A DNA stretch of 64,000 nt from Planctomycetes bacterium UBA7888 (GTDB lineage Bacteria; Planctomycetota; UBA1135), in NCBI GenBank assembly GCA_002500505.1, contig DLRM01000043.1, positions 125,623-189,622 on the forward strand, written 5' to 3'. Of the stretch, positions 843-56,924 are shown piece after piece. A program made the position numbers and the translations under genes. Numbering within the stretch: position 1 is the stretch's first letter; the number at the start of each line of letters is the position of its first letter. The notes below the pieces were generated by a model that saw only the letters and a list, made by a program, of their open reading frames with translations, made no database searches and was not told the DNA's origin.

Positions 843-2777
843 ATGCTCCTTGCTCATATTTTCGCTCTATCCACGGGGTTCCTTTTTGCCCCTGCGCCTC
901 CTCAGGAACCTTCCCAGCTCTTCTTCCTCAACGGGGAAGAGTCCGTGGAACTGCGAGTGGATGGCTCCTCCCTTGGGGTTCGATTTGCTCCAAGCTTAAA
1001 CGAATCTGAGGTCCGCCAGCTTCTTGGGAAAATATCGGTTCTTTCGATTGGCCAAGCCCAGTCGGCTATCTTTCTGCCCGCAAAAACTGTTTATTTAGAT
1101 ACCGCCTTAGGCACCACTCCGCAGGAGGCCCTAAATGCTGCTCAAAAAATTCGCGCGATGCCCGGAGTCCTCTCGGCAAGTCCCCGACTTTGGGCTTTAG
1201 AAGACCCCTACTATTTAACTGAGGACATTCTTGTGCGCTGGAAACAGGATGCCCCCCTTCCTTCCCGACAACGAGAGACCCAAGGCTTAACGAGAACAAC
1301 AGCCTTGGCCTATTCTCAGAATCCAGGTGAAGTCTTTCAGGTCCCCCACGGCACCGACCCTTTAGCCATTGCCAACCGAATCGCCAGTTCCGGTTTAGTT
1401 GAGTTCGCAATTCCTGACTTTCAACTGCATCGTATCGTTTTAGGTGGGACCAATGACCCTATTTACCCTGACCAGTGGCACTTAGAATCTACCGGCCAAA
1501 ATGGTTCGAAGCCCGACGCAGACATTGATGTGGAAGAAGCCTGGGACACCACCCGAGGGCTTGCCTCGGTAACCGTGGCGGTCATTGACACTGGAGTCGA
1601 GCTCGACCATCCCGACTTGCGTGACCACCTTTTGCAGGGAATCGATGTCCTAGACAATGACAACGACCCCAAAGCGGAAGATTTCTTGTTCGGCTTGATC
1701 ACAGAAAACCATTCAACCTCGGTGTGTGGAGTTGCAGCGGGCCATGGAAATAACAGCGAAGGAATCTCAGGGGTCTCGCAAGAATCCGGCATCATTCCTA
1801 TCCGTTTTTTGTCTGAGTGGGTTCTAAATCAACCCACTATCCAAGATGAAGCCGACGCTTTCAATTTCGCAAACAGCGCCGGCGCTTCGGTTGTCAATAA
1901 TTCCTGGGGTCCATCTGCTGCCGCCCCTTTGCCGGCTTCAACTAAAGCTGCAATTGACGACATCACAGAAAATGGACGTAACGGTTTAGGTTCCGTCGTC
2001 TTCTTCGCCGCAGGAAACTCTGGGGCCTCAAACGACACAAACGGATATACCTCCTACTCTCGCACTGTGTCCGTTTCTGCTTGTACCGACCAAGAGGTCC
2101 TTGCAAGCTATTCGTCTTTTGGGAAAAGCACCATGATTTCTGCCCCATCCAATGGAGGAATCAATGGCATCACTACAACAGATCGCTTGGGCAATAAAGG
2201 GTATAGCAGTGGTTCCTACACCGATGGATTTGGAGGAACCTCTAGTGCTTCCCCTTGCGCTTCTGGTGTCATGCTTCTCATTCTGTCCGCAAACCCCGAC
2301 ATGACTCGCTGGGAAGCAACTGCTACCTTGCTAGGGAACACGGATGTAATCGACCCAACAAATGGAAACTACAACAATCGTGGTCATTCGAACCTGTATG
2401 GCTATGGTCGCGCTAATGCCGCCTCAGCAGTTTCAGGTGCAACTCGCGTTGATAGTGTCGCTCTTTCTGGAACCTCAATGGGTTCTGTTGGCAGCACGGC
2501 GACCTTTGACATTTCTGCTGCACCAGCCAATGCGACTTGGAATCTTTATTGGTCCTGGAAAACGAACGGCTCGGTTGTAAACGGACTCCACCCGCTTGAC
2601 ATTGGCGGGAAAATCCACTTGCTCGCTACAGGTCAAACAGATTCAGCAGGCACTGCCTCCTGGACTTCCGCCCCCCTCCCTTCTGGCATATCCGGTCGTT
2701 CCGTTTATCTTGAGGCTTTGGTCTCTCATAACGGACTCGACTTTGACTCTGACCCTTGGGTCATGAGCGTTCAATAA
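843..2777 (+). CDS. Secreted subtilisin-like serine protease (peptidase S8) with a C-terminal non-catalytic module
   Basis: 644 aa. Subtilase triad motifs are present: VAVIDTGV (Asp), HSTSVCGVAAG (His), GGTSSASPCASGV (Ser). Hydrophobic N-terminus. The last ~110 aa (2448..2774) form a separate module (see findings). Confidence 0.85.
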   Translation: MLLAHIFALSTGFLFAPAPPQEPSQLFFLNGEESVELRVDGSSLGVRFAPSLNESEVRQLLGKISVLSIGQAQSAIFLPAKTVYLDTALGTTPQEALNAAQKIRAMPGVLSASPRLWALEDPYYLTEDILVRWKQDAPLPSRQRETQGLTRTTALAYSQNPGEVFQVPHGTDPLAIANRIASSGLVEFAIPDFQLHRIVLGGTNDPIYPDQWHLESTGQNGSKPDADIDVEEAWDTTRGLASVTVAVIDTGVELDHPDLRDHLLQGIDVLDNDNDPKAEDFLFGLITENHSTSVCGVAAGHGNNSEGISGVSQESGIIPIRFLSEWVLNQPTIQDEADAFNFANSAGASVVNNSWGPSAAAPLPASTKAAIDDITENGRNGLGSVVFFAAGNSGASNDTNGYTSYSRTVSVSACTDQEVLASYSSFGKSTMISAPSNGGINGITTTDRLGNKGYSSGSYTDGFGGTSSASPCASGVMLLILSANPDMTRWEATATLLGNTDVIDPTNGNYNNRGHSNLYGYGRANAASAVSGATRVDSVALSGTSMGSVGSTATFDISAAPANATWNLYWSWKTNGSVVNGLHPLDIGGKIHLLATGQTDSAGTASWTSAPLPSGISGRSVYLEALVSHNGLDFDSDPWVMSVQ

Positions 2778-9395: not shown

Positions 9396-9476
9396 CCGCA
9401 AAAGGATACTCGGCTGGCACTCAAGACAAAAAAGCTTCGGGGTTCCATCTTGCTAGCAGAGGGGTAGGATTTGACT

Positions 9477-11649: not shown

Positions 11650-13266
11650 CTACTCTTCTTTTTTTTCCGGCTCGTTTTCCACATCTAAAGGCAAGATGCT
11701 CCTTAGCTTGGAAAGCAACTTGGCGTTTTCATCCTTGGGGCCAATGTCGTCAGCCAGGCGCATCACTCGTCCACCTTCTTCCAGTTCCCCAGTAGCCTTA
11801 AGGAAATATCCAAGAGCTGCGTGATATTGCCCTGTCATGGGGTCTAACTCAACGGCTTTCTTCCACAACTTGAGAAGCTCTCCTTTCTCCTTCTCAACTT
11901 CCTCCCCACTCCTCTTTTTCTTGTCCATTCCAGATTTCAAGATAAAAAGAGCAAAGCGGTGGTGGGCTCGAGCACTTGCTTTTCCAGTATCAATCGCCTC
12001 CTGATATAACCGCCGAGCTCGGATTTCCCGATCGTAACGCAGGGCGTTCTCGGCGGCCTTCTCCAAACCAACACTAGAGGTCACCTTGAGTTCAGTCTTG
12101 ACATACTCATGCCACTCCTTCTCCATTTGAAGGAGGGATTCCCTGTTCTTGAGCTTCATGTACTTCATAAACACGCCCAGAACCTCTTCCTGGGGAACAG
12201 TCTTCAACCCATCGATTCCCATATGAACTCGTGCTACTTTTTTATCCTTCGCCAAGCCAACGAAGAACTTGCGAAAGTTTTTAGCATGCCGCTTATCGTT
12301 CATTAAAAAGTGAACAAATGTCCAACCCCAAGTGTAATGCTGATACATTCGAGTCGAGAGCATTTTCTCCAAGGACATCATGTCACCTTTGGCGATATCC
12401 GTCTGGACTTCGGTGAGCCGCCCTTCCAATATCAATCCTGACTCCAACTTTCCCGTTTCCTCATCCCAATGAGATGCGCCATAGAACTCCGCCAAGGCTT
12501 CACCAGGGAAATGTGGGTAAGAGAATTCAACATTAATCAGTTTCTGAAGATAGTGATTGGCCTCATGGAACATCACTTCCGTACTGTCTTCTGGGGCAAT
12601 CCGGTCATAGTAAATATCTAGTTCCAACGGTTTGACGAAACGGAAATACCCAAGGACATTGGAGTTTGCGCCGCTCACTTGGTGAAAGAGTGGCCTATCG
12701 CTATAAAAACAAACTAAGAGTCGCGTGTCCTTCGGGTCTTTGGCATAACCGCGCTGAGGCTTAACCTTCCATTCCTTACAGAAAGCCGCAAAATAGGCCT
12801 CCATAGTTCGACTATAGCGCTCGAACACATGAGGCGAAATCGTATGCTCAAAATTAAAGTACTTCGTTTGAACTTTGTAGCGATTTCTCCAGACGCTATG
12901 TTTTTTATGATCCTCAATTGCCTCGCGCTGCTCGCGGACAAATGATGCTATTTCTTTCTCTCTCTTTTTTGGAGACATCCACTTTCCACGAAAAGGCAAC
13001 AACCCATTGTCTAATTTTTTTTGCTCAAATTCGTCGTTAGCCTCATAGAGAGGGGATTCGCCACCTTCGACAACAGCAGATTCGATTAAGCGTGAGGGGA
13101 CAAAAACATCTCCGTGCTCAAAATGCACCAAGTAGCCACCCTCAGAGCTCTCCAAGTCGACTCCATCAAACACACGACCATCCTTCAGGATGAGGATGTC
13201 GGCAAAAAGTTCCCCGCAAAGAAAAATGAAAAAGGATGCGACGCAACAAATAAAGGGTCTCTTCAT
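11650..13266 (-). CDS. Secreted putative zinc metalloprotease (HExxH; DUF1570-like) with a C-terminal TPR-like region
   Basis: 538 aa with a signal peptide. HEANH is encoded at 12553..12567, followed by FPGEALAEFYG. The C-terminus is helical and TPR-like. The start ATG overlaps the upstream stop (ATGA at 13263..13266). The DUF1570 assignment is from memory and needs HMM confirmation. Confidence 0.6.
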   Translation of the reverse strand: MKRPFICCVASFFIFLCGELFADILILKDGRVFDGVDLESSEGGYLVHFEHGDVFVPSRLIESAVVEGGESPLYEANDEFEQKKLDNGLLPFRGKWMSPKKREKEIASFVREQREAIEDHKKHSVWRNRYKVQTKYFNFEHTISPHVFERYSRTMEAYFAAFCKEWKVKPQRGYAKDPKDTRLLVCFYSDRPLFHQVSGANSNVLGYFRFVKPLELDIYYDRIAPEDSTEVMFHEANHYLQKLINVEFSYPHFPGEALAEFYGASHWDEETGKLESGLILEGRLTEVQTDIAKGDMMSLEKMLSTRMYQHYTWGWTFVHFLMNDKRHAKNFRKFFVGLAKDKKVARVHMGIDGLKTVPQEEVLGVFMKYMKLKNRESLLQMEKEWHEYVKTELKVTSSVGLEKAAENALRYDREIRARRLYQEAIDTGKASARAHHRFALFILKSGMDKKKRSGEEVEKEKGELLKLWKKAVELDPMTGQYHAALGYFLKATGELEEGGRVMRLADDIGPKDENAKLLSKLRSILPLDVENEPEKKEE

Positions 13267-14882
13267 TTCAGGTATTTCATGTAAGTTTTGTCAAGAGAAG
13301 CCCAATCTTTTTCGGACCAGTCTTCAAAAGTACGGCGGAACACTTCGTCAACAAAAGCTTGCGTGCGAACCTCCCATTTATTGGAGTCGGCCTCAAAGGC
13401 CGCGTCTTCCTCTTCCTCTGTCATAGGTTCGGCCTCTTCATCATCATCCTCTTCCTTTTCTTTTTTTTCTTTCGCAGCTCGCTCTTCCAAAACAACCTGC
13501 GCATGAAGAATAATCTCTTCTGCCAACCCCTTCGTTAATTTACTTTTCGCTCCAGGCCCTTCCAATAACCAGCGCGTAAAGGAAACACACTCCCACAACA
13601 ACGACGAGCCACGAGGCACATTCCTGAACTTTCCTACTGGAAGCCGAATCAACTCGCTTGGAAGAAGGACAGATTCTTGCCGAAAGGATTCCCTAATGGA
13701 CTCGTTTTCATAGCTCGTCGCAGCAAATTGCATCTTCGACCCCTTCAAAGTACCTCCATATCGGCTCATTCCATCAAGCCCTAGCTTGAGCCAGGTCGGC
13801 AAATTGCGCCACAAGGAGCGATCCTTATCGCTAAACCAAAAGCTCATGGCCCGCCTATTCAGGTATCCCCATTCAAAACTAGACGCGCCCGCAGTACTCT
13901 TGTGGGTAAGAATTTCAATGTTAGTGAAGCTCCATGAAGAGCCTCGCTGAAAGGACCTCTCTTCCTCAACGTTGGCGCAGATTCGAATAATAGGGGCGCG
14001 AACATATTCCTCCGGATTGACATACGGAAAAGTCTTGTCCAGCCACTTAAACATTGCATCCACTTGGTTGACGACTTTCTTCGCATGTTTTTTATCGGCA
14101 TGGTTCAATACCAAGTAGCGGCTCATTTCCTTGACAATCCAATCTTCTGGGAGGTTTTCCTGAGCTTTTTTCCGTTGATTCTCTTCAACGGCCTTCCGAG
14201 TTTTCATGCGATCTTGTGGGGTATCATCTCCCCAATCAACTTCAAGAAGCTCTGTTGACTTGTCTCGAGTTTCTGTCCTTTCAATTACCTTGAACGATTT
14301 GAAGGATTTGTTCAGGCTCCGTTTCAGTTTCGGATACACCGACTCAAAGAGAATGAACTCAACAGCAATGTCTACACCAGGAAGGTGGTAAACCCAGGCG
14401 TTGACTCGCATAGGCGCATTAGAGCTCTTTTCGATTTTGATGTCATAAGCAGTAGCCTCAATGCCACGGACGTCGACTGTCTCCTCAGAATCCACAAACC
14501 AACCAGCGCCACTTGTTTTTTTTCGTAGGTAATCCAAATAATCATCGTATGGATTTTTATAAGTTATTCTGACAACATTATTTTTTTCGCCATCTACCTT
14601 TCCAGTAACTGGTCCAGACGAATCGGACTTTTCGCCAAAGGCAATCATGGTCATGCTGGGGCGATTTTCCATTGTGTAACCAAATGTTTTATCTGTGTAA
14701 TAATATTTCCGATCAGACTCATACTTCCCAACAAGGTGCCTTTCATTTGTCGCCAAGGCAATCTCCTTCCAATCTTTGGGGACATCGATCTTGAACCCAA
14801 GCTGCGGATCCTCATGCTCCAAAGGCGCCAGAACGAATGGGGAAAGGAGGAGAATCGACTTTAGAAAGAAGGGTGAATTCAT
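13263..14882 (-). CDS. Secreted hypothetical protein; degenerate DUF1570-like paralogue lacking HExxH, with an acidic C-terminal tail
   Basis: The track ORF opens at GTG 14924. ATG 14882 gives a signal-like MNSPFFLKSILLLSPFVLAPLE. ILTHKST (13893..13916)...NLPTWLKLGLDGMSRYG aligns with HExxH...PGWLDEGLACY of the neighbouring paralogues. The tail is KEKKEKEEDDDEEAEPMTEEEEDAAFE. Confidence 0.55.
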   Translation of the reverse strand: MNSPFFLKSILLLSPFVLAPLEHEDPQLGFKIDVPKDWKEIALATNERHLVGKYESDRKYYYTDKTFGYTMENRPSMTMIAFGEKSDSSGPVTGKVDGEKNNVVRITYKNPYDDYLDYLRKKTSGAGWFVDSEETVDVRGIEATAYDIKIEKSSNAPMRVNAWVYHLPGVDIAVEFILFESVYPKLKRSLNKSFKSFKVIERTETRDKSTELLEVDWGDDTPQDRMKTRKAVEENQRKKAQENLPEDWIVKEMSRYLVLNHADKKHAKKVVNQVDAMFKWLDKTFPYVNPEEYVRAPIIRICANVEEERSFQRGSSWSFTNIEILTHKSTAGASSFEWGYLNRRAMSFWFSDKDRSLWRNLPTWLKLGLDGMSRYGGTLKGSKMQFAATSYENESIRESFRQESVLLPSELIRLPVGKFRNVPRGSSLLWECVSFTRWLLEGPGAKSKLTKGLAEEIILHAQVVLEERAAKEKKEKEEDDDEEAEPMTEEEEDAAFEADSNKWEVRTQAFVDEVFRRTFEDWSEKDWASLDKTYMKYLK

Positions 14883-14955
14883 GGCTTTTCCGGAGCAGGG
14901 TTGGCCCTTTTGCTCAATATCCACTCTAGCGATGAGGGGGCGTCATGGCATGGAA

Positions 14956-17051: not shown

Positions 17052-18275
17052 ATGTTGAATCTCCTTTGCGCCCTCATTCTTGCTGCCGGTGGCGACGATC
17101 CCGTCCTGGACATTGTTGAATTAACCAGCGGGAAAAAATTGGAAGGGATTATTCTTCGAAAGACGGATGAAGAAGTTGTTCTGGCTCAAGGCTCTCGGCA
17201 CAAAACAATTGCCCAATCCAAGATTTCCAATCTATCGGGACCGCGTCCTGATTATCCGGAGTACATCCGCCGACTCAAGGAACTGGCAACCTCCACCCCT
17301 ACCGCACCGATGGCCAATGAGCTGGCAGACTGGTGCATTGAGCATGGCTATCCTCAAGACGCCAAGATGCTCCGGTACTTTGCCTTGGTTGTGGACCCTG
17401 CCAATGAGAAAGCCCACACCGCACTTGGCCACAAGAAGTACGGAGACGACTGGAAAGCCAAACTTAAGTCTGGAAGTCGAGTTCGCTGGGAAACCATCCA
17501 AGAACGAAGGTTTGATTTTTCTGATTCCTGGGAAATCCAAACGTCCCATTTTGAAGTCAAAGCCGCAGGCCCCTTGGACGATGTCATTTTTTCCTGTATG
17601 GAGCTAGAGCAATTTTATTCTCTTTATTACGCCCAATTCCAAGAAAAAATTGGCTTTTACGAACTCCAAAATCGCATTCAAATCTATATCTATCCAGACC
17701 TGGAGAGCTTTCCTCCCCAATCAGGAATTGAAGCAGCCTATTTTGATTCTTCTGAGAAAATACTGCGCTCTTTTTTCACAAGTGCAGGCCCCGATAACCT
17801 TCTCCATGAAGCGACTCACGCCCTTTTATTTAGCACGGGCAGAGAACTAGAGCGGCGGGACCCAGAGTTCCCGGGCTGGTTAGATGAAGGTCTTGCTTGT
17901 TATTTTGAGGCCGGGATAATAAAAACCCCTGGATCCATTTCCTTTGACAACACCCTCATTGAAATGCCTCGGTTCCGTGTCCATCGAGATGCCGGCAAAA
18001 AAATGGATGGGCTGACGCGAGTCCTGAATTATCAAAAGGGCGACTTTTGGGCTTCTACTGGTCGGGTAAGGCGCTATGCCCAATCCTACACTTTGGTCCG
18101 CTTCCTCTTGCATTCTGGAAATGATGAATTGCGCGAGAGCTTTTTCCGTTTTCTGTCTTCGGCCTACAGGAGCAAGGGCTCTACAACTTACTTCAAAAAG
18201 ACTTTCGGGAAAAAAACCTATAAAAACCTGGAAGAACTTTGGACTGACTGGGTCCTCAAGGTCGCCGGGAACTAA
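17052..18275 (+). CDS. Secreted putative zinc metalloprotease (HExxH; DUF1570-like)
   Basis: 407 aa with a hydrophobic N-terminus. HEATH is encoded at 17805..17819, followed by FPGWLDEGLACYFEAG. The N-terminal small beta-domain pattern (ELTSGKKLEGIILRKTDEEVVL) parallels ILKDGRVFDGVDLESSEGGYLV of the 11650..13266 protein. Confidence 0.6.
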   Translation: MLNLLCALILAAGGDDPVLDIVELTSGKKLEGIILRKTDEEVVLAQGSRHKTIAQSKISNLSGPRPDYPEYIRRLKELATSTPTAPMANELADWCIEHGYPQDAKMLRYFALVVDPANEKAHTALGHKKYGDDWKAKLKSGSRVRWETIQERRFDFSDSWEIQTSHFEVKAAGPLDDVIFSCMELEQFYSLYYAQFQEKIGFYELQNRIQIYIYPDLESFPPQSGIEAAYFDSSEKILRSFFTSAGPDNLLHEATHALLFSTGRELERRDPEFPGWLDEGLACYFEAGIIKTPGSISFDNTLIEMPRFRVHRDAGKKMDGLTRVLNYQKGDFWASTGRVRRYAQSYTLVRFLLHSGNDELRESFFRFLSSAYRSKGSTTYFKKTFGKKTYKNLEELWTDWVLKVAGN

Positions 18276-20700: not shown

Positions 20701-21933
20701 TCAAGCAAGAGCGAGACCGCGGGCCAGGTGAGTCTTAGCTTCCTCAAAACCCCGCCCGGCATCATAGAAAATACTTACCAGAGGTTGCCCCTTCGAAACC
20801 AAATCCCCCAACTTTGCGTGAAGTTTCAAACCTACACCAGGATGGACGGAGTCTTCGGATCGAGTCCGGCCAGCGCCCAATCGGAAAGCGGCCAATCCCA
20901 ACTCGCCGGCATCACAAGTTTGTAAAAGCCCACTCGTTTCAGCCTCAATGGTTTCGACCTTACAGTCCGCACCAAGAAGTTGGGCCTCTGGATCTCCACC
21001 CTGGCCACGCAGCATCAAGCACCAATGTTCCCATGCAGAACCATCTTGAAGAACTTGGGCGGCTCCTTTGGGGTCTCCGCTCAACTCAAGACAAAGATTC
21101 ACAAAATCTTCTGGGCCTTCACCTTGCAAAGTATCCACCGCCTCTTGAACTTCAAGTGCGTTGCCAATAGCGCACCCGAGCGGAGTGGACATTCCCGTTA
21201 CCTGGGCAGTGGTTTGTACGCCGGCACCACAGCCCACGCTTACCAAGGAATCCGCCAGAGCTTGGGCATCCTCCTGCGTTTTCATAAAAGCGCCAGTACC
21301 GAATTTTACATCCAATACTAAACGATCTAATCCTTCAACCAGTTTTTTAGAAAGGATGCTTGCGGTGATAAGTGGAATCGAGGGAACCGTTTGGGTTTCA
21401 TCTCGAAGGGCGTAAAGAATACGGTCTGCTGGAGCAATGCTTTCCGTTTGGCCATTAATGAAGCAACCTGCAGCCCCAAGAACTGCATGTAATTCAGCTG
21501 GATTCAAATCAGTTCGAAAACCTGGAATCGCTTCCAACTTATCTAAGGTACCCCCAGTAATCCCTAAACCTCTTCCGGAAAGCATGGGGACTCGCAGGCC
21601 CATCGCCGCCCAAATCGGGGCCAAAACAAGGGAAACCTTATCGCCCCCCCCGCCAGTGGAATGCTTGTCCACAAAGGGACCCTCAATACCAGGCCAGGAC
21701 AAAGTTTCGCCCGATTCCGTCATGGCACGGGTCAAGGCCACCGTTTCCTCATGGGTCATTCCATTGAGAAAAACAAAGGCCAGCCATGCTGCAGCTTGGG
21801 GTCGACTCACCGCACCCGATACAACTCCATCGACAAAAGCACGGATTTCGTGCTCAGTTTGCTCTCGGCCATCGCGCCGAGCATCCAATAGGGAATCGAT
21901 GGAGAACGCTTGCAAAACTATGGAGATATCCAA
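20701..21933 (-). CDS. deoA: Thymidine/pyrimidine-nucleoside phosphorylase
   Basis: 410 aa. RRDGREQTEHEIRAFVDG, DKHSTGGGGDKVSLVLAP and SGRGLGITGGTLDKLE are signatures. The start is TTG (21933 or 21915); no ATG is available upstream of the conserved N-terminus. Confidence 0.9.
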   Translation of the reverse strand: MDISIVLQAFSIDSLLDARRDGREQTEHEIRAFVDGVVSGAVSRPQAAAWLAFVFLNGMTHEETVALTRAMTESGETLSWPGIEGPFVDKHSTGGGGDKVSLVLAPIWAAMGLRVPMLSGRGLGITGGTLDKLEAIPGFRTDLNPAELHAVLGAAGCFINGQTESIAPADRILYALRDETQTVPSIPLITASILSKKLVEGLDRLVLDVKFGTGAFMKTQEDAQALADSLVSVGCGAGVQTTAQVTGMSTPLGCAIGNALEVQEAVDTLQGEGPEDFVNLCLELSGDPKGAAQVLQDGSAWEHWCLMLRGQGGDPEAQLLGADCKVETIEAETSGLLQTCDAGELGLAAFRLGAGRTRSEDSVHPGVGLKLHAKLGDLVSKGQPLVSIFYDAGRGFEEAKTHLARGLALA

Positions 21934-23450
21934 GAAACCGATTCGTCCCCGGCTTCGACTTCGATTTCACCAACTTGAACCCCATCCGCTTGAAAAGCTC
22001 TCAATAGATGAGTGCCGGAAGGAAGGTCGGAGAGGAAGAAGGCGCCGTCTGGTCCAGACTGAGTAACCCCCAACCCAAATTCACGCCAAGGGTGGCCTCC
22101 AGGAAATTCCGCATTGTTCGGAGCTTTCATTTCAGGAAGAACGACTTCAATGCGCATGTTAGGGAGAGGGCTTCCTGATGCATTCAAAAGCTGCCCCGCA
22201 ACAATTTCCCCCTGCTGAAGAAGAATTTCGAGAGACTCATTCCCATCTTCAAGATTTAATGGCCAAATCGAGGTCACGGCGTAGCCGGGAGAATAGACCA
22301 ACAAAGCGGCTTCTAAATCTGCAAAGAGCCCTTTGAATTGGAAGAGACCGTTCCTTTGAGCTCGCCGTTCTCTATCCTGTTCTCCACGCAAACGAAGATA
22401 TGCCTTTGAAACTGGGTTGCCATTCTCATCATGAACGACTCCCCCCAAGCGGTACCCCCGAATCATTTCTATATCTAAGCTCCCTGTGCCTGGCAAAAGG
22501 CGGCTTCGAAGGGGCTGATAGTCCAAGTGTTTCGCCTCCACGGCCCAAACCTGACTTATGGGTACTGAATTCAAAGTAAAACTGCCATCCACGTCCGAAT
22601 AAACAACTTGTTGGCGCACGGGAAAATAGTAAATGCCCTGATGGTGGGTTGAGTCCCGACGGGCGTGGCGCCCCACCATTCCAGCAACGACAAGAGCCGC
22701 TTGAACGGTCTCCCCATCACTCCCAAGAGCCATGCCAGAAACAGTGTTGGATGGCTCCATTAATAACTCTAGCCCATCCAAAACTTGACCGCTTTTGATT
22801 TCTCCGCCAACCCTTTGAACACACACTCTCTCCTCAGCAATAGCCTCCAGAATAAACGGACCTTCAGGAATTCCCCCAAGGGTGAATGTGCCCCCCTCAT
22901 GAGTTTTAGAGAGGAGGTCGACAGAAGCTTCCGGCTTTTGGGCTAACTTTTCCTTTTTCTTGAACCAAAGGTGAATATCAGCTTCAACAATGGGTTTGCC
23001 CATGGAATCCAACACTTGCCCAGAAACGACGCCACCTGGCTGAAGCCTAAACTCAAATTCCATGTCAGCACCGGCGAGAACCGGTTTTTTGATGACCTTG
23101 GCACTGGGTGCCGTGGATGGGGTTGGGGAGACCGCAATGGATTGGACGAAAGTCCCTGCTTGGACTTCAAAACTGCAGCGACCCTCTGAATCCGTGGTCT
23201 CAAATGCACGGCCCATATCGTTTAGATCGTCCTTCCAAAGCAATCGCACCCGGATTTCAGGTACAGGCTCCCCGGTCGAGTCGAGCAGAACATGGGCACG
23301 AAGCCAAGCCATTCCTGCAGTAGCAGGATTTGGAGTAATCGTCGCAACCTCTTTCTGGGGAGGCAGTTCAGGTGTATTAACCTGTCCAGAATCTCCTCCA
23401 CAGGAGAGGCCGAGAAAAACGAGGAGAGAGGCGGAGATGGGACCCTTCAT
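21918..23450 (-). CDS. Lipoprotein with repeated carboxypeptidase-regulatory-like (CarboxypepD_reg) beta-sandwich domains
   Basis: 510 aa. Lipobox LGLSCGG. Recurrent G-x-V-x-D-x-x-G-x-P-(V/I)-x-x-A pattern: VSGQVLDSMGKPIVEADI, LGGVVHDENGNPVSKAYL, VAGQLLNASGSPLPNMRI. Confidence 0.6.
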   Translation of the reverse strand: MKGPISASLLVFLGLSCGGDSGQVNTPELPPQKEVATITPNPATAGMAWLRAHVLLDSTGEPVPEIRVRLLWKDDLNDMGRAFETTDSEGRCSFEVQAGTFVQSIAVSPTPSTAPSAKVIKKPVLAGADMEFEFRLQPGGVVSGQVLDSMGKPIVEADIHLWFKKKEKLAQKPEASVDLLSKTHEGGTFTLGGIPEGPFILEAIAEERVCVQRVGGEIKSGQVLDGLELLMEPSNTVSGMALGSDGETVQAALVVAGMVGRHARRDSTHHQGIYYFPVRQQVVYSDVDGSFTLNSVPISQVWAVEAKHLDYQPLRSRLLPGTGSLDIEMIRGYRLGGVVHDENGNPVSKAYLRLRGEQDRERRAQRNGLFQFKGLFADLEAALLVYSPGYAVTSIWPLNLEDGNESLEILLQQGEIVAGQLLNASGSPLPNMRIEVVLPEMKAPNNAEFPGGHPWREFGLGVTQSGPDGAFFLSDLPSGTHLLRAFQADGVQVGEIEVEAGDESVSWISP

Positions 23451-23607
23451 ATGCGCAGATTAGCGTGGCTGGGGCAAGCAACCATAACCCTTAGGAACGC
23501 CTAGTTTCCCCGGCAAAAGTCCTTTCCATCGGGTAGGATTGGACAGCCGGTCCCTTTCATCCCGACGACCTAAGAGGCTTGGCCCTCCTTTGAACATCCT
23601 TCTCAAA

Positions 23608-25581
23608 ATGCGTGACTCAATTCCCCTCCTTGCGTCGGCTCTTGCCTTCGCGCTGACCCCCTCCCTTTTCGCCCAACAAGATTGGTTCAACACTTGGAAT
23701 AGTCCTGGCGGCTCCACCGGAGATGCTTTTGGGTATTCCGTAGCAGAAATGGGCGACTTGGACAGTGACGGACTCTCAGAAGTCCTTGTTGGCGCAATTG
23801 GCGCCGACAACAATGGCCGCAACAGCGGCTCAGTTTTCATTCTCGACGGCGACACGGGCAATGTCCTTCTTCGAGTAGACGGCGAGGGTGCTGGAGATTT
23901 ACTCGGTGTAGATGTCATCGGCTTGGATGACCTCGACGGCGATGGATCCAAAGACTTTGCGGCAGGCTCACCTTATTACGAAGGCGCTAACGGCTTCTTC
24001 TCTGGCCGTGCATATGTGTTTAGTGGTGCCGATGGTTCCGTTCTGGACACGATTGAGGGACTTGCCGCTGGAGACATGCTGGGTTCCGCCCTTGCGTTTG
24101 GTGACATCGACGGAGATGGTATCAAGGAACTAATGGTTTCCGCGATTGGCCACGGGAACATGGATGGCGATGTTCGCGCATTCAACTTCAATCAAACAAC
24201 CGGAGCATTAGACGAGGATTTTTCCACTTCCGACATGTTGGTAGGTTCGACCAACAGCGAATGGTTTGGGTTCGCGTTAGATTGCCCTGGAAGCATCAGC
24301 CCTCCTTTATTAGTGGTCGGCGCACCCTTTGATTCTACAACTGGCTCAGCTTCCCTCTTTGCAGTGCACCCTGGGAGTGGCCTTCTTTCCAAATTCAATT
24401 TCCTTCCAACGCTTGCCGGCCCTCCAGTTAAAGGTGTGGGCATTTCCGTCTCTGCTTTAAAGGGAGACTCCGGTGCGATTTACCTCGCTGCCGGCGCCCC
24501 CATCAACCACGGAGGCTCTGTCTTTGTCTGGGATGTTAGCCTCGGATTCCCAAATACTCACCGAATAGATGGGGTCAATTTAGGGGCTCACTTTGGATTC
24601 TCCGTCGCTCTTTTGGATGATTCCAACTTCGACGGCGAACCAGACCTCGCAATTGGCGAACCAGGGAACTCCCATATTGAAGTTTTAGATCTCGCCAACC
24701 CAACTCCTCAACTTGGCCCCCTACTTGAACTTGATGGCACTCTTGGCGATCGTATGGGATGGTCGATGACACGCTTGTCGGACTCTAATGGAAGTGGGAA
24801 GAGTGATTTCGTCGCTAGTGGGACACGAATTTCCACCGGTGCGGGCACGAGTACTGGCGCAATATCTCACTGGACTCCACCAGATACGGATTTAGATCCA
24901 CCCGCAACAACAGTCACTTCCACCTGGTTGCTAGGTGACGATGTCACGATAACCGTAGACAACCTAAGGGACCCCTGCGACCTCTACTTCTATGCGGGGA
25001 AGAGCATTACTCCAACGACCTCTGCAGAGGGGTTTGATTTGGATATTGGAAACTTCCAACAATTCTCTACACCTACAGGTGGAGATTACTTCTTCTTAGC
25101 ATCAAATGTAACGGGTGGAACGAAAACTATCACCGTTCCAATCCCGTTGACCATGTCTGCTGGAAGTCCGCTGATTTTCCAAGTTGGGACCAAAACAAGT
25201 AGCCCCTTCTTGCGAGTAAGCCCTTTAGACCCTGACGATGGAGGCCTCCTCGTCGCCCCACCATTCCAGCTTGACTACAGCCCACCACCTGCCGCTGGCG
25301 CCACGACAAACCTCCAGGCTAACTTTGGCCACCCCAATGAGAAAATATACTTCTTTTACGGAACCAGTACCGGTTCTGCCGGCTACCTCGGATTTATTGT
25401 AAATACTGGCCTTAGTGCTCCAACGATGATTGCAAATATCGTCGCAGATGCCACTGGCACAGCGAATTCAAGCATTGGCATCCCTGCCGGGACCACAGGC
25501 TTCCCCCTTTACTTCTCTGCCGTTTCTTGGATTAATCTGAATGAACTCCTCGACGTGACTGAAGAACTCACCATTGGGTAA
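23608..25581 (+). CDS. Secreted FG-GAP (integrin-alpha-like) repeat protein with C-terminal non-FG-GAP modules
   Basis: The track ORF opens at TTG 23539. ATG 23608 gives the signal peptide MRDSIPLLASALAFALTPSLFAQQ. Repeated Ca-binding DxDxDG loops: DLDSDGLSEVLVGA, DLDGDGSKDFAAGSP, DIDGDGIKELMVSA, DSNFDGEPDLAIGEP, DSNGSGKSDFVASG. Confidence 0.8.
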   Translation: MRDSIPLLASALAFALTPSLFAQQDWFNTWNSPGGSTGDAFGYSVAEMGDLDSDGLSEVLVGAIGADNNGRNSGSVFILDGDTGNVLLRVDGEGAGDLLGVDVIGLDDLDGDGSKDFAAGSPYYEGANGFFSGRAYVFSGADGSVLDTIEGLAAGDMLGSALAFGDIDGDGIKELMVSAIGHGNMDGDVRAFNFNQTTGALDEDFSTSDMLVGSTNSEWFGFALDCPGSISPPLLVVGAPFDSTTGSASLFAVHPGSGLLSKFNFLPTLAGPPVKGVGISVSALKGDSGAIYLAAGAPINHGGSVFVWDVSLGFPNTHRIDGVNLGAHFGFSVALLDDSNFDGEPDLAIGEPGNSHIEVLDLANPTPQLGPLLELDGTLGDRMGWSMTRLSDSNGSGKSDFVASGTRISTGAGTSTGAISHWTPPDTDLDPPATTVTSTWLLGDDVTITVDNLRDPCDLYFYAGKSITPTTSAEGFDLDIGNFQQFSTPTGGDYFFLASNVTGGTKTITVPIPLTMSAGSPLIFQVGTKTSSPFLRVSPLDPDDGGLLVAPPFQLDYSPPPAAGATTNLQANFGHPNEKIYFFYGTSTGSAGYLGFIVNTGLSAPTMIANIVADATGTANSSIGIPAGTTGFPLYFSAVSWINLNELLDVTEELTIG

Positions 25582-31539: not shown

Positions 31540-34209
31540 ATGACTTTTCTCCATTTTCGCCTTTTTCCAATTCTGGGCTTGGTCACTATTTCATTCCTAG
31601 CTTGTTCTCCAGGAGAAGATTCTTCTAGCGGTTCTTCTTCAGAAGGCTCGACATCTTCCTCAGCCACCAGCATTGATGTCCCCATCCAAATCCGTGATTT
31701 TTATAACGCTGGTTCTGAAAAAGTGCCTGTACGAGTTTCAGTTCCACTTCCAAAGGGAATTGCGCCGGAGCAACCCCCTTCTTGGGAGCTCCAAATTCAG
31801 GGCATGCCTCCAATTCCTGTCTCCAACACCGTTCTTTCTCGTTGGGAAGACGGCTCCGTGCGGGTTGCCTTGGCCGAATTTATGTCACCCCCCATTCAGC
31901 CAAACACCGTCTTGGAGGGAAATTTAAAAACCACAACAGCCAAAATTAAAGCCAGGAATAAATGGCAAGTAAGGAATTCCGCTCTACAAACCAATTTCTT
32001 CCAATTAGCGCTTAGCGATGACGCCTTGTTTTCCATCAAACATGCCGATGGGTCCCCATGGCTGGGTTCTATTAAGAGTATCCTCAATTTAGATTCGCAA
32101 TCTGTCTCAAGCTATAGTCTTCACCCTGGCACTTTCCAATTGGAATCCGACACTGACTTTTCAGCGACCTATGCAAAAGAGGATTCTTTCAAAACAGCAA
32201 GTGGGCGAACTGTTTGCTCTCTAAAAACTCGAATTACAGCTTGGCGCAATCACTCGGCAGTCCGAGTACAACAATCCTTGGATATTCACTCTGGAATCCA
32301 CAAAGTTCAAGCCTGGAGCCTATCCGTCCCTCTTTCGGACAAACAAGGTTCCCCTATCGTCGCCCTTCCCGACGATGGCACAAAGGTGCTTGATGGCGAT
32401 TTTTCTTTGCAGCAAGTGAGCCACAAACAATGGAGCACAAAAGGCAGAACTTTAGATGGTCGTCTTCCTGGGTTTCTTGCCTTGGACGACTTTTGCCTTT
32501 CCGTTACTGACTTTTGGCAGCTCTATCCATCGGGTTTCACCCGCAATTCAGATTCCCTAGAGGTTGAATTTTGCCCCGTTGTAGACGAAAGACCGGTTGT
32601 TCTCGAGGAAGGATTTGGTCGAACCTGTGAGGTTTGGCTGGATATGCAACCCACCGACCCCACAACCCCCGTTCCAGTTCTCACTCGCCGCTGGGCTAAA
32701 CCACCCTTGGTTTCTTGCAAACCAGAATGGTATCTCTCTAGCAAAGCATTTGGAGACTTAGGCTCCTTCAACTCGGAGTCTTTTGCCTCGATGGCAAACC
32801 CTATTTCTCACTCCATTGACAGCATGCTTGATCGGCGTGAGAAATTTGCCAGAACAGATTATGGAATCCAAGGATTCGGTGATGCCTCGGGAACGGGGAA
32901 AACCATTAGCTATATGGGTTCCATGCAAGCCGAGTACGACCCTGCCCTGACCTTGTTCCAATATTTCCTACGTACCGGTGATCCCAAAGGGTTTGAGCTG
33001 GGAATGGACTTTGCCTGGCACTACGCAGATGTGGACATCTCTCCTTATGGGGGTGCATTCCAACACCGGGCAACTAGGCGCCACATAGAAACCTGGATTG
33101 CAGACCTTTTTTCAGAAAAGCTAGAGGCCCTGATTCAATCAAACCGTAGCGGGCCCTTATCTAAAGACGATGTTGTCGCATGGGCTGAAGCTCAATATGA
33201 AGAAGACTTTGGGCTCACCCTAAAGAGATGGGTTCGAGAAGAAAAAGGAAATGGCGCAGATGATGAAGAAATGAAAAGCCGTGTTCTACGCATGCTTGGC
33301 ATGAATGAAGTCATTCTGATTGAGAGGAACCTAAAAGGAAGCGAAGAAGTGGGCGACTTGAGAAAATTAGCTGAAGGCATTTCTCAAGATTCTCGAGCTC
33401 AAGAGCTTGGATTTACTGATCTAGACACTCAATTTTCAGGGTTTTTCGATCTTTACGGCGGAAGTTGGGATAACCCACCTGTGTTCAATGTGGACACCTA
33501 CCCCATCCCGGAAAAACGACATATGGGAGGACACTCTGTCATTGAGGGCACTGTATTAGCCTACCTTTTATCGGGTGAACCTCGCCTGAAGGATTCCATT
33601 CTTCGCTTTGCCGAACACCATGCAGATTGGATTGTCCCGAATGCGATTCGAACTCTTGAGGAGGCTCGAGAAGCTGGAACCACATTGGCTCCGAGAACTA
33701 TCGCCTGGCCTGTTATCAACATCCTCAGCATTTTCCATCTGACTGAAAGCCGGCCCAACACATCTGCCCTTCACGCAAAACTGACCGCGGCGGCTGGCGA
33801 GTGTGAAAGCTTATTGCGCACGGTCTCCGCCGAGGAAACTAAATCCTCCATTCATGCGGGCATTGGAATGGAAGCACTTTCAAGGTGGCATGAGTACAGC
33901 AACGACTCCGACACCCAAAAAGCTCTTGTAGCGTTTGCCGAAAAATGGGCCGAAGACATGTACGACCAAAGCAAGCACGCATTCCGATATCATCGCAACG
34001 ATTCTGGAGAACCCGCAATGAGTGGACTTTGCATCCGAGGACTCGCTTATGCCGCTTCCATCAGCGGAAATTCCTCTTTGAAGGAGCTTTGCGAGGAATC
34101 TTGGGAGCACCTTCCCGAGGAGGTCTCTATGAGCAAATCTTTTGCGATGCACTACAGAGGCGTAATCCCTACCCTCCACCTTATGGATCGCTGGGCGAGC
34201 TCTCCGTAA
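31540..34209 (+). CDS. Large lipoprotein of unknown function; tentatively PcRGLX/PL26-like (exo-rhamnogalacturonan-lyase-family architecture)
   Basis: 889 aa. Lipobox FLACS followed by a Ser-rich linker. The N-terminal VPVRVSVPLPKGIAPE...LSRWEDGSVRVALAEF resembles the N-terminal barrel pattern of PL26-like proteins as I recall it. The coding call is solid; the function is weak. Confidence 0.5.
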   Translation: MTFLHFRLFPILGLVTISFLACSPGEDSSSGSSSEGSTSSSATSIDVPIQIRDFYNAGSEKVPVRVSVPLPKGIAPEQPPSWELQIQGMPPIPVSNTVLSRWEDGSVRVALAEFMSPPIQPNTVLEGNLKTTTAKIKARNKWQVRNSALQTNFFQLALSDDALFSIKHADGSPWLGSIKSILNLDSQSVSSYSLHPGTFQLESDTDFSATYAKEDSFKTASGRTVCSLKTRITAWRNHSAVRVQQSLDIHSGIHKVQAWSLSVPLSDKQGSPIVALPDDGTKVLDGDFSLQQVSHKQWSTKGRTLDGRLPGFLALDDFCLSVTDFWQLYPSGFTRNSDSLEVEFCPVVDERPVVLEEGFGRTCEVWLDMQPTDPTTPVPVLTRRWAKPPLVSCKPEWYLSSKAFGDLGSFNSESFASMANPISHSIDSMLDRREKFARTDYGIQGFGDASGTGKTISYMGSMQAEYDPALTLFQYFLRTGDPKGFELGMDFAWHYADVDISPYGGAFQHRATRRHIETWIADLFSEKLEALIQSNRSGPLSKDDVVAWAEAQYEEDFGLTLKRWVREEKGNGADDEEMKSRVLRMLGMNEVILIERNLKGSEEVGDLRKLAEGISQDSRAQELGFTDLDTQFSGFFDLYGGSWDNPPVFNVDTYPIPEKRHMGGHSVIEGTVLAYLLSGEPRLKDSILRFAEHHADWIVPNAIRTLEEAREAGTTLAPRTIAWPVINILSIFHLTESRPNTSALHAKLTAAAGECESLLRTVSAEETKSSIHAGIGMEALSRWHEYSNDSDTQKALVAFAEKWAEDMYDQSKHAFRYHRNDSGEPAMSGLCIRGLAYAASISGNSSLKELCEESWEHLPEEVSMSKSFAMHYRGVIPTLHLMDRWASSP

Positions 34210-35622: not shown

Positions 35623-37446
35623 ATGATTTCTCGCCCCCTCCTTTTCCTAACCCTTTTACTGGCATCACCCCTATTTTCCCAGGAAAGTCCCTGGATTTAC
35701 AATTCGAGCACCAAGCATTGGTACAAGATGACGCGCAGTATGTCTTGGCTCGATGCCGAGAATTCCGCTCTTAGCGTTCAGGGGCATCTCCTCTCCATTT
35801 CGGACTTCTATGAGAACGACTGGGTGTTCCAAACTTTTGGAGATTATGGCCCTTTGTGGATTGGTTTTAACGATGAACTTCAGGAAGGTGTTTGGGATTG
35901 GACTTCGGGAGATCGAATCACTTATCTCAAGTGGTCTCCAAATCAACCTAACGGAGGAGCCCTTCAAAATGCCGCAGCTATGCTTCCAACTGGCCATGCT
36001 GCTGCCTCTTCATGGTCAGATTTTCGCACTACCCAAAAGTTTCGAGGCGTCATCGAAATTAACTTTCACCCAGGTTTTTTATATGACAATGACGGGGACG
36101 GACTTACGGATGGAGAAGAAATTTCCTTATGGGGAACGGATCCTAAAGACCAAGACTCCGACGACGATGGCCTCTCTGATGGAGAAGAAGTTCTATATCC
36201 TCACCCTGCCTGGCACTGGAACGAATCCAATAATCACTGGTATCGCCTAAGCGCTTCGGGAACCTGGGATGAAGCCGAAGCGGAAGCCGTTTTGGCAGGA
36301 GGACATTTGGCCACAATCCGAAACGCCGCAGAAAACGATTGGCTTCTTCAAAACCTATATCGAGATTCGTGTAGTAGCAATCCGGATTTAAACGGACCTT
36401 GGATTGGTTTAAACGACACTCGAATTGAGGGAAGTTTCGAGTGGATTTCGGGCGAATTGACGACCTATCGGAATTGGCTCCCTGGCGAACCGAACTCTTG
36501 GCTTGGACAAGAAGATCATGTCCACATGTCCGCAAATGGTCAATGGAATGACCTTGGGCCTGAGATTTTATGTTGGGATCGCCTCCCTGGGATTATCGAG
36601 ATTGATTTTGAGCCACCTTTGCTGGGAACAGATCCTTTAAACCCGGACTCAGATGGGGACTCACTTCAAGATGGGCAAGAACTTGGCCGAGACCAAGGTT
36701 GGCCAGGAGATCCCGCAAACGGGATTGCTGGAACCGATTTGGCTTGGTTCCATCCGGATGCGGACCCGAGCACCACGACACACCCTCTGGACAATGACTC
36801 TGATGATGATGGCTTTGGTGACGGAGATGAAGACATCGATGCCGATGGTCAACAAGATTCTCATGAACTCGATGCAAGCTCCAAAGATACCGATGAAGAT
36901 GGTATTCAAGATGGAACTGAATCGGGCCTGACCCAAGGAACTCTCGGAACGAACCCACAGATTTTCAAGCCCGACAACGACCCTGTTACCGTGACGGACC
37001 CCCTTAATGCCGACAGTGATGGCGGAGGCCTGCTAGATGGCCTGGAGGACCGAGACAAGAATGGTCTTGTGGACTTGTTTGACACGGATCCAAACTTGCC
37101 TTCCGACGACCAATATGTTCTCGAAGTTGACCCCCTCTTTTTCCTAAGCATTGGTGGCTTGGCCAATTTTCAGGTGATTGACGCTCGTCCCTTCTCTCTT
37201 TGCCATGTCTTGTACTCACTTACAGGCTCGGGGCCAACCACTTTGCTCAATGGGCTGCAATTGGATTTAACTCCGCCCGCAACACCCTTTGCCGCCCTTT
37301 TCGTCTCCGGCCTCGGTCATGGCTCTAGAACGGTTCAAGTTCCCCTGACTGCCCCCATGGGCGCTCAAGTTTGGTTCCAGGCCATTGAATTTGATTCGGG
37401 TTCCCCGACTCGTATGTCGAACAACCTTTTACGCCTGCTTTACTAA
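35623..37446 (+). CDS. Secreted protein with two C-type lectin-like domains, thrombospondin-type-3-like Ca-binding repeats and a C-terminal shared module
   Basis: 607 aa with a signal peptide. CTLD1 is at 35719..36066 (WIGFNDELQEGVWDWTSG, QPN, WSD). CTLD2 is at 36238..36606 (WIGLNDTRIEGSFEWISG, EPN at 36487..36495, WND at 36544..36552). DxDxDG-rich repeats lie at 36082..36195 and 36622..37110. Confidence 0.8.
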   Translation: MISRPLLFLTLLLASPLFSQESPWIYNSSTKHWYKMTRSMSWLDAENSALSVQGHLLSISDFYENDWVFQTFGDYGPLWIGFNDELQEGVWDWTSGDRITYLKWSPNQPNGGALQNAAAMLPTGHAAASSWSDFRTTQKFRGVIEINFHPGFLYDNDGDGLTDGEEISLWGTDPKDQDSDDDGLSDGEEVLYPHPAWHWNESNNHWYRLSASGTWDEAEAEAVLAGGHLATIRNAAENDWLLQNLYRDSCSSNPDLNGPWIGLNDTRIEGSFEWISGELTTYRNWLPGEPNSWLGQEDHVHMSANGQWNDLGPEILCWDRLPGIIEIDFEPPLLGTDPLNPDSDGDSLQDGQELGRDQGWPGDPANGIAGTDLAWFHPDADPSTTTHPLDNDSDDDGFGDGDEDIDADGQQDSHELDASSKDTDEDGIQDGTESGLTQGTLGTNPQIFKPDNDPVTVTDPLNADSDGGGLLDGLEDRDKNGLVDLFDTDPNLPSDDQYVLEVDPLFFLSIGGLANFQVIDARPFSLCHVLYSLTGSGPTTLLNGLQLDLTPPATPFAALFVSGLGHGSRTVQVPLTAPMGAQVWFQAIEFDSGSPTRMSNNLLRLLY

Positions 37447-55676: not shown

Positions 55677-56924
55677 TCAAAACCATGTAATCAGCAAACG
55701 CAAGCCAATTGTGCCATTGCGATCCATCGGATAACTACTGTGTCGAGATGCAGATCGAAGGTGGATCCCAGAATTGCTCCGGCTACCACCACGAATCACG
55801 CAAGACCAGCCACTGATTGGGCCAGTCGGGTTTTCGGCAGGAGAGTTCAAGTAATAACTTGGATCGTACCAATCGTTGCACCATTCCCAAACGTTGCCCG
55901 CCATATCGTATAGGTCGTAATCATTTGATGTGTAGCTCCCAACATCCACAGTGGTACCCACGTTGTAATCATAATTTGCATCGTTTGAGGTGATGTCATT
56001 TCGATTCCAGGGGTATTGGAAGTAAGGGTTTTCTGCCCCACCCCGCGCGGCATATTCCCATTCGGCCTCTGTAGGCAAACGATAACCTCCGCTAGAAAAA
56101 TCACAAGTCCATGTTGTTTCATCGTAACAAGGGTTGAAGTTGTCAGCAAGGCTTCGCCAATTTGCGTAGAAGCAGGCACCGTACCAAGTCATGTAAACCG
56201 CCGGATAATTTTCTTTCCCGGGTTCAACCAGAAATCGGTTCCCATTCCATAACAAGCCGTTCCAGAGGTTGCAAATTTCCTTATTGCTGCCGCCAACCTG
56301 ATAAACGCTATTCCCGGAAACCATCACCCTCCCATTAACATAACTTGAGTTGAGGAAATGCGCATACTTCTGATTCGTCACTTCGTATTGATCCATGTAA
56401 AAACAATTCAAAGTAACGGAATGTACAGGGTTCTCATCAAGAGAGCCTAAACCAAAATGATCCCCCATTTCAAAAGTCCCAACAGGGATATGCACCATGT
56501 CCAGGCGCGGAGGATTGGGCATGAGGATTAGTGGAACCATGTTTGTAGCTTGATGGGCTGGAACAGACCACATGTCGTATTCAACGCCCTGGAACCATAC
56601 CTCGGTGCCAACGCTCAACGTTTTTGGAATAGAGAGAGGGCCCAGATTCCCTGAACCTACGCCGTCAAGTTGAAAGGGGTCAATTTGCTTGATAGGTTCC
56701 GTTAAATCCAGAATCAAACCACTTGGCAAAGTGATTGGTCCTGGGCCCGACTTTGAATAGCATAGAAAAATCCACGCATCGGGTGCGCCATAATCAATCT
56801 GAAAAGTTATCTCGCCTCCTTTGAAAATAGGGTCAATACTGAGCGTTGCTTGAGAATAAAGCCTTGCCGGGCTAGCAAACACTAGAACGATAAAGAAAAG
56901 CAGAAAAACGAGGGGATTTTTCAT
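55677..56924 (-). CDS. Secreted FGE/SUMF1-domain (formylglycine-generating-enzyme fold) protein with an N-terminal shared module
   Basis: 415 aa with a signal peptide. YRLPTEAEWEYAARGG, GNVWEWCNDWY, RGGS...R.A.R...P......GLR. N-terminal residues 26-135 (56520..56849) form the module shared with the lectin protein. Confidence 0.85.
   Translation of the reverse strand: MKNPLVFLLFFIVLVFASPARLYSQATLSIDPIFKGGEITFQIDYGAPDAWIFLCYSKSGPGPITLPSGLILDLTEPIKQIDPFQLDGVGSGNLGPLSIPKTLSVGTEVWFQGVEYDMWSVPAHQATNMVPLILMPNPPRLDMVHIPVGTFEMGDHFGLGSLDENPVHSVTLNCFYMDQYEVTNQKYAHFLNSSYVNGRVMVSGNSVYQVGGSNKEICNLWNGLLWNGNRFLVEPGKENYPAVYMTWYGACFYANWRSLADNFNPCYDETTWTCDFSSGGYRLPTEAEWEYAARGGAENPYFQYPWNRNDITSNDANYDYNVGTTVDVGSYTSNDYDLYDMAGNVWEWCNDWYDPSYYLNSPAENPTGPISGWSCVIRGGSRSNSGIHLRSASRHSSYPMDRNGTIGLRLLITWF

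Follow-up and report, generated by a model that had tools for sequence, protein, structure and literature searches.

A shared module at the ends of four proteins

The DNA analyzed here, called the window throughout, is a stretch of 64,000 nucleotides from contig DLRM01000043.1 of Planctomycetes bacterium UBA7888 (assembly GCA_002500505.1; Planctomycetota, UBA1135). It contains four genes whose products begin with what look, when read by eye, like Sec signal peptides and carry one or two copies of a module of roughly 95 to 110 residues at one end (Table 1). The remainder of each protein has a different Pfam head, namely, Peptidase_S8, FG-GAP, two Lectin_C domains with TSP3_bac repeats, or FGE-sulfatase, which agrees with an earlier note on this DNA that had described a recurrent terminal module on otherwise unrelated proteins. 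Peptidase_S8 is confined to residues 242 to 522 of the S8 protein, with the module downstream of that span, and FGE-sulfatase to residues 142 to 411 of the FGE protein; the module regions of all four proteins have no Pfam coverage, even at an E value of ≤0.1. The open reading frame (ORF) of the FG-GAP protein probably opens too early, at an upstream TTG; the true start would lie near Met24 (around window position 23608), where the signal-peptide-like sequence MRDSIPLLASALAFALTPSLFAQQ begins (the ORF portion ahead of it, up to Met24, is at 23539-23610), and a database protein that is 97% identical (P0169) is 20 residues shorter.

Table 1. Host genes, module copies, and adjoining features in the window (residue numbers refer to the encoded protein; iE, independent E value of the family hidden Markov model [HMM])
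Feature	Position	Strand	Description	Basis or support
Host gene 1 (lectin)	35623..37446	+	607 residues; two Lectin_C domains, TSP3 repeats, C-terminal module; predicted exported	ORF and Pfam
Host gene 2 (FGE)	55677..56924	-	415 residues; predicted signal peptide, module, then FGE-sulfatase domain	ORF and Pfam
Host gene 3 (S8)	843..2777	+	644 residues; S8 subtilase, then module	ORF and Pfam
Host gene 4 (FG-GAP)	23539..25581	+	680 residues; FG-GAP (integrin-alpha-like) propeller, then two modules	ORF and Pfam
Module copy 1	37114..37443	+	Lectin/TSP3 protein, residues 498-607, C-terminal 110 residues; stop codon next	iE 9e-29
Module copy 2	56520..56849	-	FGE protein, residues 26-135, right behind predicted signal peptide	iE 1e-34
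Module copy 3	2457..2774	+	S8 subtilase, residues 539-644, C-terminal ~106 residues; divergent	iE 2.7e-8
Module copy 4	24907..25248	+	FG-GAP protein, residues ~457-570, first tandem copy; degenerate	Profile-profile E=1.9e-9
Module copy 5	25264..25578	+	FG-GAP protein, residues 576-680, last ~105 residues, abuts stop codon; divergent	iE 7.9e-7
TSP3-type calcium-binding loop DRDKNGLVDLFDTDPNLPSDDQ	37048..37113	+	Lectin protein, residues 476-497, immediately 5' of module copy 1
Predicted signal peptide MKNPLVFLLFFIVLVFASPARLYSQ	56850..56924	-	FGE protein	Predicted by reading; homologues begin alike

Comparison of the sequences confirms that the recurrence is genuine, with five modules in the four proteins. 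The strongest pair is the lectin C terminus (37111-37443) and the FGE N terminus (56520-56849), for which the near residue-for-residue match first noted by eye is borne out by BLASTP (E=1e-19, 36% identity over 109 residues) and by a shuffle z-score of 27.5. The lectin copy has the canonical form (YSLTGSGPT...LDLTPP...VP...G..VWFQAI), and the FGE copy is joined to the FGE domain by a PNPP linker. The S8 and FG-GAP tails are insignificant in pairwise comparison with these two copies (shuffle z, 0.1 to 3), and an HMM of only the two strong sequences placed them correctly, though with an E value of about 0.5. A family HMM built purely from 149 outside homologues, with the window sequences left out, detected both the weaker copy that had been proposed at the S8 C terminus, in a match that spans HMM positions 7 to 87, and the second FG-GAP copy.

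The claim of about two tandem copies in the FG-GAP protein also held up, with the first of them degenerate. This first copy has an 8- to 9-residue insertion within the long loop of the domain and scores an E value of about 1 with the family HMM and 1.3e-4 by hhalign as a single sequence. In a noncircular profile-profile test, 36 family sequences without the weak copies of the window were aligned with profiles of the two halves of the FG-GAP tail, each built from 3 sequences; the first copy was recovered with a probability of 96% and 101 columns in register (E value in Table 1), and the second was recovered at an E value of 2.4e-11. Two FG-GAP orthologues (P0170 and P0187) each carry two tandem modules according to the family HMM, and an AlphaFold2 model of the tail (pLDDT 63, from a 3-sequence alignment) has two successive all-beta units of equal strand order, which lends weak support. 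Jackhmmer seeded with the first FG-GAP copy returned nothing from the collected proteins and loci, and no sixth copy was found at an E value of <1 in the six-frame ORFs of the window.

That the shared domain is unreal and reflects chance or compositional likeness among Gly/Ser/Thr/Pro-rich tails has next to no probability. That the S8 and FG-GAP tails score close to random in pairwise comparison and that the two-sequence HMM gives a poor E value are what such a reading would predict, but it is ruled out by the lectin-FGE alignment, by independent profiles that detect the S8 and FG-GAP copies at E values of 1e-7 to 1e-11 in register over the whole domain, and by the confident fold prediction and hundreds of homologues described below.

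Sequence, fold, position, and distribution of the family

When 1.84 billion cluster representatives were searched exhaustively by HMMER with a two-sequence profile, 255 clusters (50% identity) were found at an E value of ≤1e-3 and 50 at ≤1e-10. Word-indexed homologue searches were far less productive, with no matches to the lectin module alone and only 2 to a 38-sequence profile. Members share the signature YS[LI]xGxGPT, 8 to 10 residues, LDLSxPI, DxxG, VP, G, [VI]WxQA[VI], and SN close to the end, and the near-invariant positions in lectin-module numbering are G14, S35, G38, G40, L52, P55, G68, P77, G83, W87, and Q89. Conservation is unusually high in the 20-residue loop that connects strands C and D (G.GPt....G..LDLs.PI). 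Within the window, the lectin copy has the complete signature (YS[LI]xGxGP...D[LIM]xxP...DxxG...VP...G..[VI]WxQ[AG]), and the FGE copy has it save for K in place of L or I (YSK); the S8 copy has lost GxGP and W.Q and retains the turn positions G, D..G, P, and G. For this copy and the two from the FG-GAP protein, membership in subfamilies of greater divergence is probable. Many FG-GAP homologues of ~560 and ~930 residues (P0184, P0198, P0208, P0209, P0224, P0234, P0236, P0261, P0263, P0274, and others) have marginal module-HMM matches (E values of 1e-3 to 5e-2) at their extreme C termini, and a wider and more divergent superfamily of sandwiches at C termini may exist, with the detected family as its conserved core.

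AlphaFold2 modeled the lectin module from the 38-sequence alignment with high confidence (pLDDT 95.6, pTM 0.86) as an immunoglobulin (Ig)-like two-sheet sandwich of eight beta strands. Foldseek searches of PDB and BFVD with this model returned only generic Ig-like, FN3, and ML sandwiches, none with an E value under 1e-3; the best structural neighbors were Der f 2/NPC2, LAIR-1, LILR, FN3, and the Deinococcus HPI S-layer protein (TM about 0.5), and the likeness of the predicted structure to Ig-like domains is thus one of fold class only. Sequence libraries gave no family either. At E values of ≤1, Pfam models up to 2025 gave no family that reached 0.01 on 38 modules (the best was Big_3_5, at 0.021 in 2 of the 38), NCBIfam 20.0 gave no match, and a sequence search of PDB gave nothing significant (best E=0.63). 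A full-text search of the literature found no account of a terminal domain of this kind from planctomycetes. Beta-sandwich families without annotation are common in metagenomic proteins; the module is an unnamed Ig-like beta-sandwich family of ~95 to 110 residues that is new to the curated libraries, in keeping with the remark in the earlier note that it could not be placed in a named family. That note had named in advance two findings that would tell against a distinct shared module, an insignificant alignment and a match to a generic Ig, IPT, or PKD family; both were looked for, and neither was found.

The family HMM placed 149 modules in 148 representative proteins, of which 127 are C-terminal (within 25 residues of the end), 20 come right after a signal peptide, and 2 have an internal position. 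The claim that the module is always terminal therefore stands for 147 of 149 modules and fails for the two internal ones. Among 33 genomic loci recovered by a motif scan, 44 of 45 HMM modules end 2 to 13 residues ahead of a stop codon, and fragmentary gene calls therefore do not account for the C-terminal bias. All but one of the 148 representatives have a single module; besides the tandem FG-GAP type, P0070 is the exception to single-copy use. C-terminal tails end in V/I-Q before the stop in 44 of 111 cases and in N in another 26, typically as P-V/I-G-A/S-N, and 79 of 108 complete proteins with a C-terminal module have signal-peptide-like N termini by a crude heuristic.

The N-terminal layout of the FGE protein is shared by about 15 homologues, in which a signal peptide ending in AQA is followed by QTLQIDPIY. 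This N-terminal subfamily is a tight clade, yet it is found on FGE, cadherin-like, and RCC1 cargo, and its close relatives are C-terminal; for these reasons the module appears to have switched protein ends and still to work. The finding upholds an earlier caveat that the FGE protein argues against a strictly C-terminal sorting signal. In two divergent members, P0117 (module at residues 45-143) and P0140 (residues 55-164), the module follows soon after a lipoprotein-like N terminus (e.g., MKRFTLVAILMVGCSP), and a lipid anchor and the module may co-occur.

A Pfam census of 88 host proteins matched 47 families, and the 25 families listed are, without exception, of extracellular type. The commonest is TSP3_bac (19 hosts), followed by FG-GAP families (17 to 18), Lectin_C (17), RCC1, Big_9/cadherin-like, and Beta_helix/Chlam_PMP (9 each), FGE-sulfatase (5), Laminin_G_3 (3), and M12 peptidase (1). 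Glycoside hydrolases and lyases are absent from the 25 listed families, and no carbohydrate-binding module (CBM) family of Pfam matches the modules. Directly upstream of 41 to 50 of the 111 C-terminal modules lies a TSP3-type loop (pattern DG.ED.N.NG..D..ETDPN...DD) or an E.DP...DD junction, as in the lectin protein; the S8, FG-GAP, and FGE copies of the window have no such junction. This arrangement suggests that in many members the loop and the module form a composite "calcium loop plus sandwich" cassette.

MBO46572.1, from a metagenome-assembled genome (MAG) of a Planctomycetes bacterium, is identical to the lectin protein, which recurs in 38 collection blocks on a minimum of 23 assembled contigs, Tara Oceans assemblies included; all named homologues are from "Planctomycetota bacterium." For a wider survey of lineages we used a degenerate DNA pattern that encodes the signature, which gave 1 match on the window and none in 100 shuffles of it. 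Across 185,579 species with one genome each, where about 2 chance matches are estimated for the collection, the pattern recovered 33 stretches, all from MAGs, of which 32 are labeled Planctomycetota, Planctomycetales, or Phycisphaerales and one is labeled "uncultured bacterium"; no isolate genome in this set had a match, nor did any viral contig. The HMM upheld all 36 pattern matches in the scanned loci. UBA1135, one of the carriers, belongs to the OM190/"Saltatorellota" clade (10.1101/817700). Judged from these matches, the family appears to be restricted to uncultured, mostly marine Planctomycetota, a restriction that is strong but not exhaustive and that fits the lineage-specific character first proposed for the module. 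Several genomes hold multiple matches. In eight loci (L011, L019, L021, L023, L025, L028, L031, and L032), two or three neighboring paralogous genes each end in the module, which points to local tandem duplication of tagged genes.

Other genes in the window include one for a 510-residue exported-looking protein with CarboxypepD_reg-like repeats (21918-23450, minus strand), whose gene is the neighbor of the FG-GAP gene in opposite orientation and which has no module; exported proteins of this organism are accordingly not all tagged. Positions 17052-18275 (plus strand) encode a DUF1570 protein and positions 3890-5335 (minus strand) a protein with a weak Sortilin-Vps10/BNR-like match (31.3 bits, against a Pfam cutoff of 33), and four ORFs of 459, 538, 553, and 889 residues (9471-10850, plus; 11650-13266, minus; 13263-14924, minus; 31540-34209, plus) have no Pfam match at an E value of ≤1e-5.

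Comparison with known systems and alternative readings

The closest parallel among known systems is the C-terminal domain (CTD) of type IX secretion systems (T9SS; Por_Secre_tail, PF18962/TIGR04183) of Bacteroidota and relatives in the Fibrobacteres-Chlorobi-Bacteroidetes (FCB) group. Like the module, it is an Ig-like sandwich of about 70 to 100 residues that occurs as one extreme C-terminal copy on Sec-exported proteins with diverse heads, among them proteases, lectins, adhesins, and FG-GAP propellers, and both are lineage restricted and present in many copies per genome, with low identity between paralogous copies. Two FG-GAP homologues, P0215 (residues 905-974 of 986) and P0216 (residues 1074-1148 of 1153), end in Por_Secre_tail 5 to 12 residues from the terminus, and on homologous FG-GAP cargo of other lineages this domain thus fills the slot that the module fills in planctomycete proteins. 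Membership in the CTD family is nonetheless excluded by phylum, by the N-terminal subfamily, and by a lack of profile similarity. No Por_Secre_tail/TIGR04183 match was found by Pfam (E≤0.1 on the four proteins and ≤1 on the 38 modules) or NCBIfam (E≤1), and when hhalign was used to compare the module profile with an FG-GAP protein that bears Por_Secre_tail, the probability was 0.3% and the aligned stretch lay outside the CTD. The module occurs in MAGs labeled Planctomycetota (32 of 33) and not in T9SS lineages and, unlike the strictly C-terminal CTD, is also N-terminal (20/149), internal (2/149), or tandem. T9SS is not known from Planctomycetota.

Likeness to a PEP-CTERM-type signal, which had been raised together with the T9SS CTD as a conceptual parallel, does not hold, since the tails (...TVQ, ...PIGAN, ...LRLLY) have no hydrophobic helix or basic stretch and NCBIfam gave no match; the N-terminal subfamily argues against both parallels. 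The S8 copy recalls the PPC domain (PF04151), another small C-terminal beta-sandwich on secreted peptidases of marine bacteria, which is thought to aid secretion and then be removed, but the module has no Pfam match to it, extends to cargo far beyond peptidases, and includes the N-terminal subfamily. The lectin protein in turn resembles the thrombospondin signature domain in its calcium-binding TSP3 repeats, its terminal beta-sandwich, and the conserved junction between the last loop and the sandwich. The C-terminal domain of thrombospondin has about double the size of the module and is lectin-like, TSP_C gives no Pfam match to the module, and a TSP3 junction is present in under half of the C-terminal modules. 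The named bacterial Ig-like families (Big_x, PKD, IPT/TIG, FN3, CARDB, and He_PIG) are excluded by the Pfam results above; Big_1-9, PKD, IPT/TIG, FN3, and CARDB are typically internal or tandem, whereas the module is single and terminal and has a signature of its own (YSLxGxGPT, LDLSxPI, DxxG, VP, G, VWxQAV).

In their architecture, SLH domains and dockerins offer another comparison, as both are noncatalytic terminal modules that are N- or C-terminal on exported proteins with diverse heads. They hold these heads on the cell surface via a common partner, and by analogy the same may be proposed for the module. Dockerins are built from DxDxDG-type calcium loops, and a loop of equal type abuts the module in many members. 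The folds differ, with SLH helical, the dockerin a small calcium-bound helical pair, and the module a beta-sandwich, and neither Dockerin_1 nor SLH matched the modules or appears in the host list of 25 families.

The reading that we favor, to which we would give slightly less than an even chance, is that the module is a lineage-restricted terminal tag on predicted exported proteins, a docking or retention unit usable from either end. After export, such a noncatalytic unit would bind a common lineage-specific partner, either a component of the cell envelope or a scaffold or receptor protein, and whichever head is attached (lectin, integrin-like, protease, or FGE) would thereby be displayed on the cell surface. 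The module would function from either protein end, in the style of SLH domains and dockerins, and in many members the adjacent TSP3-type calcium loop would work jointly with it as a cassette. Export, surface location, a partner, and retention or cleavage of the module are what we infer here. We prefer a tag to a spacer, an adhesin repeat, or a CBM because the module is single copy, terminal, and lineage bound, is present in multiple copies per genome on diverse heads, and has a conserved loop and a reading frame that stops after the last strand.

Several observations weigh against such a tag, and most of them fit a more ordinary domain. The near-invariant residues consist largely of turn Gly and Pro, together with S35, W87, and Q89, and may have a structural role alone; of the signature, nothing but the Gly/Pro turn positions survives in the S8 copy and the two FG-GAP copies, and their loss of GxGP and W.Q is awkward for one common binding site. 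The tandem pair in the FG-GAP protein and an internal copy in P0070 mean that the rule of one terminal tag is not absolute. Across the 33 loci, no noncargo gene that could be a candidate for a partner or machinery is present in more than 4, and the four tagged genes of the window are unclustered, dispersed among housekeeping genes (carA, a ychF-like GTPase, tsaD, PPDK, acyl-CoA dehydrogenase, and others). The DNA pattern, moreover, accepts only CAG glutamine codons and reaches only about 28% of family members, so that divergent members in other phyla may be missed. With its plain Ig-like fold, its lack of a specific structural neighbor, and its chiefly adhesin-like cargo (lectin, FG-GAP, cadherin-like, and beta-helix), the module could instead be a generic structural or adhesive end-cap, a spacer, or a low-specificity adhesin or glycan binder for particles or algal surfaces, with no dedicated partner and a terminal position that arose from shuffling within one lineage. 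We consider this somewhat unlikely, given that spacers and adhesin repeats of Ig-like type tend to be internal or tandem, yet nearly all modules are single and terminal, that the stop follows so closely and the end motifs are conserved, that the long loop is strongly conserved family-wide, and that, unlike typical carbohydrate-binding modules, this one is not paired with glycoside hydrolases or lyases among the host families listed.

A cleavable secretion signal for an undiscovered outer-membrane translocon or sortase, removed after guiding its cargo in the manner of the T9SS CTD or the PPC domain, would account for the extreme C-terminal position of about 85% of copies, with the frame ending just past the last strand, as well as for the size and Ig-like fold that match T9SS CTDs, the diverse cargo, multicopy genomes, and restricted lineage, and the Por_Secre_tail found in the equal slot of orthologous FG-GAP cargo in T9SS-type organisms. 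We regard this as quite unlikely. A C-terminal translocation signal could not work in the coherent N-terminal subfamily, behind a Sec signal peptide, or in the two internal copies, and similarity to Por_Secre_tail is absent by sequence and by profile; no cleavage motif is apparent at the junction, where a calcium-binding loop is conserved instead. Copies at the N terminus, and the few internal ones, speak against a translocation signal of any strictly C-terminal kind and fit binding of a partner from either end, as proposed for the docking tag. The reading of the module in the earlier note is partly supported: its recurrence on unrelated heads, its lack of a named family, its terminal bias, and its restriction to Planctomycetota are borne out, and a sorting, anchoring, or adhesion role is putative.

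Implications for planctomycete surface proteins

The export and display of the very large surface-protein repertoires of planctomycetes are poorly understood. The module marks dozens of otherwise unrelated predicted exported proteins, and such a compact, recognizable tag offers a computational handle on the surface proteome of lineages with no cultured representative among the matches. A wider proposal, which we consider unlikely but worth stating, is that uncultured marine Planctomycetota, including OM190/UBA1135 "Saltatorellota," have a so far undescribed sorting or surface-attachment system whose cargo is tagged by the module, a functional counterpart of T9SS-CTD/PorV-PorU or cohesin-dockerin that would read its tag at either protein end, with the TSP3 loop as part of the recognition unit. 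The strict use of either protein end, the restriction to Planctomycetota, and the equivalence with the T9SS slot make such an undiscovered system a testable question. Even if the module is only a structural Ig-like cap, a family model is warranted, as about 100 residues are unannotated in several hundred protein clusters, and a search for genes that are codistributed with the tag could reveal a new sorting or anchoring system in these planctomycetes.

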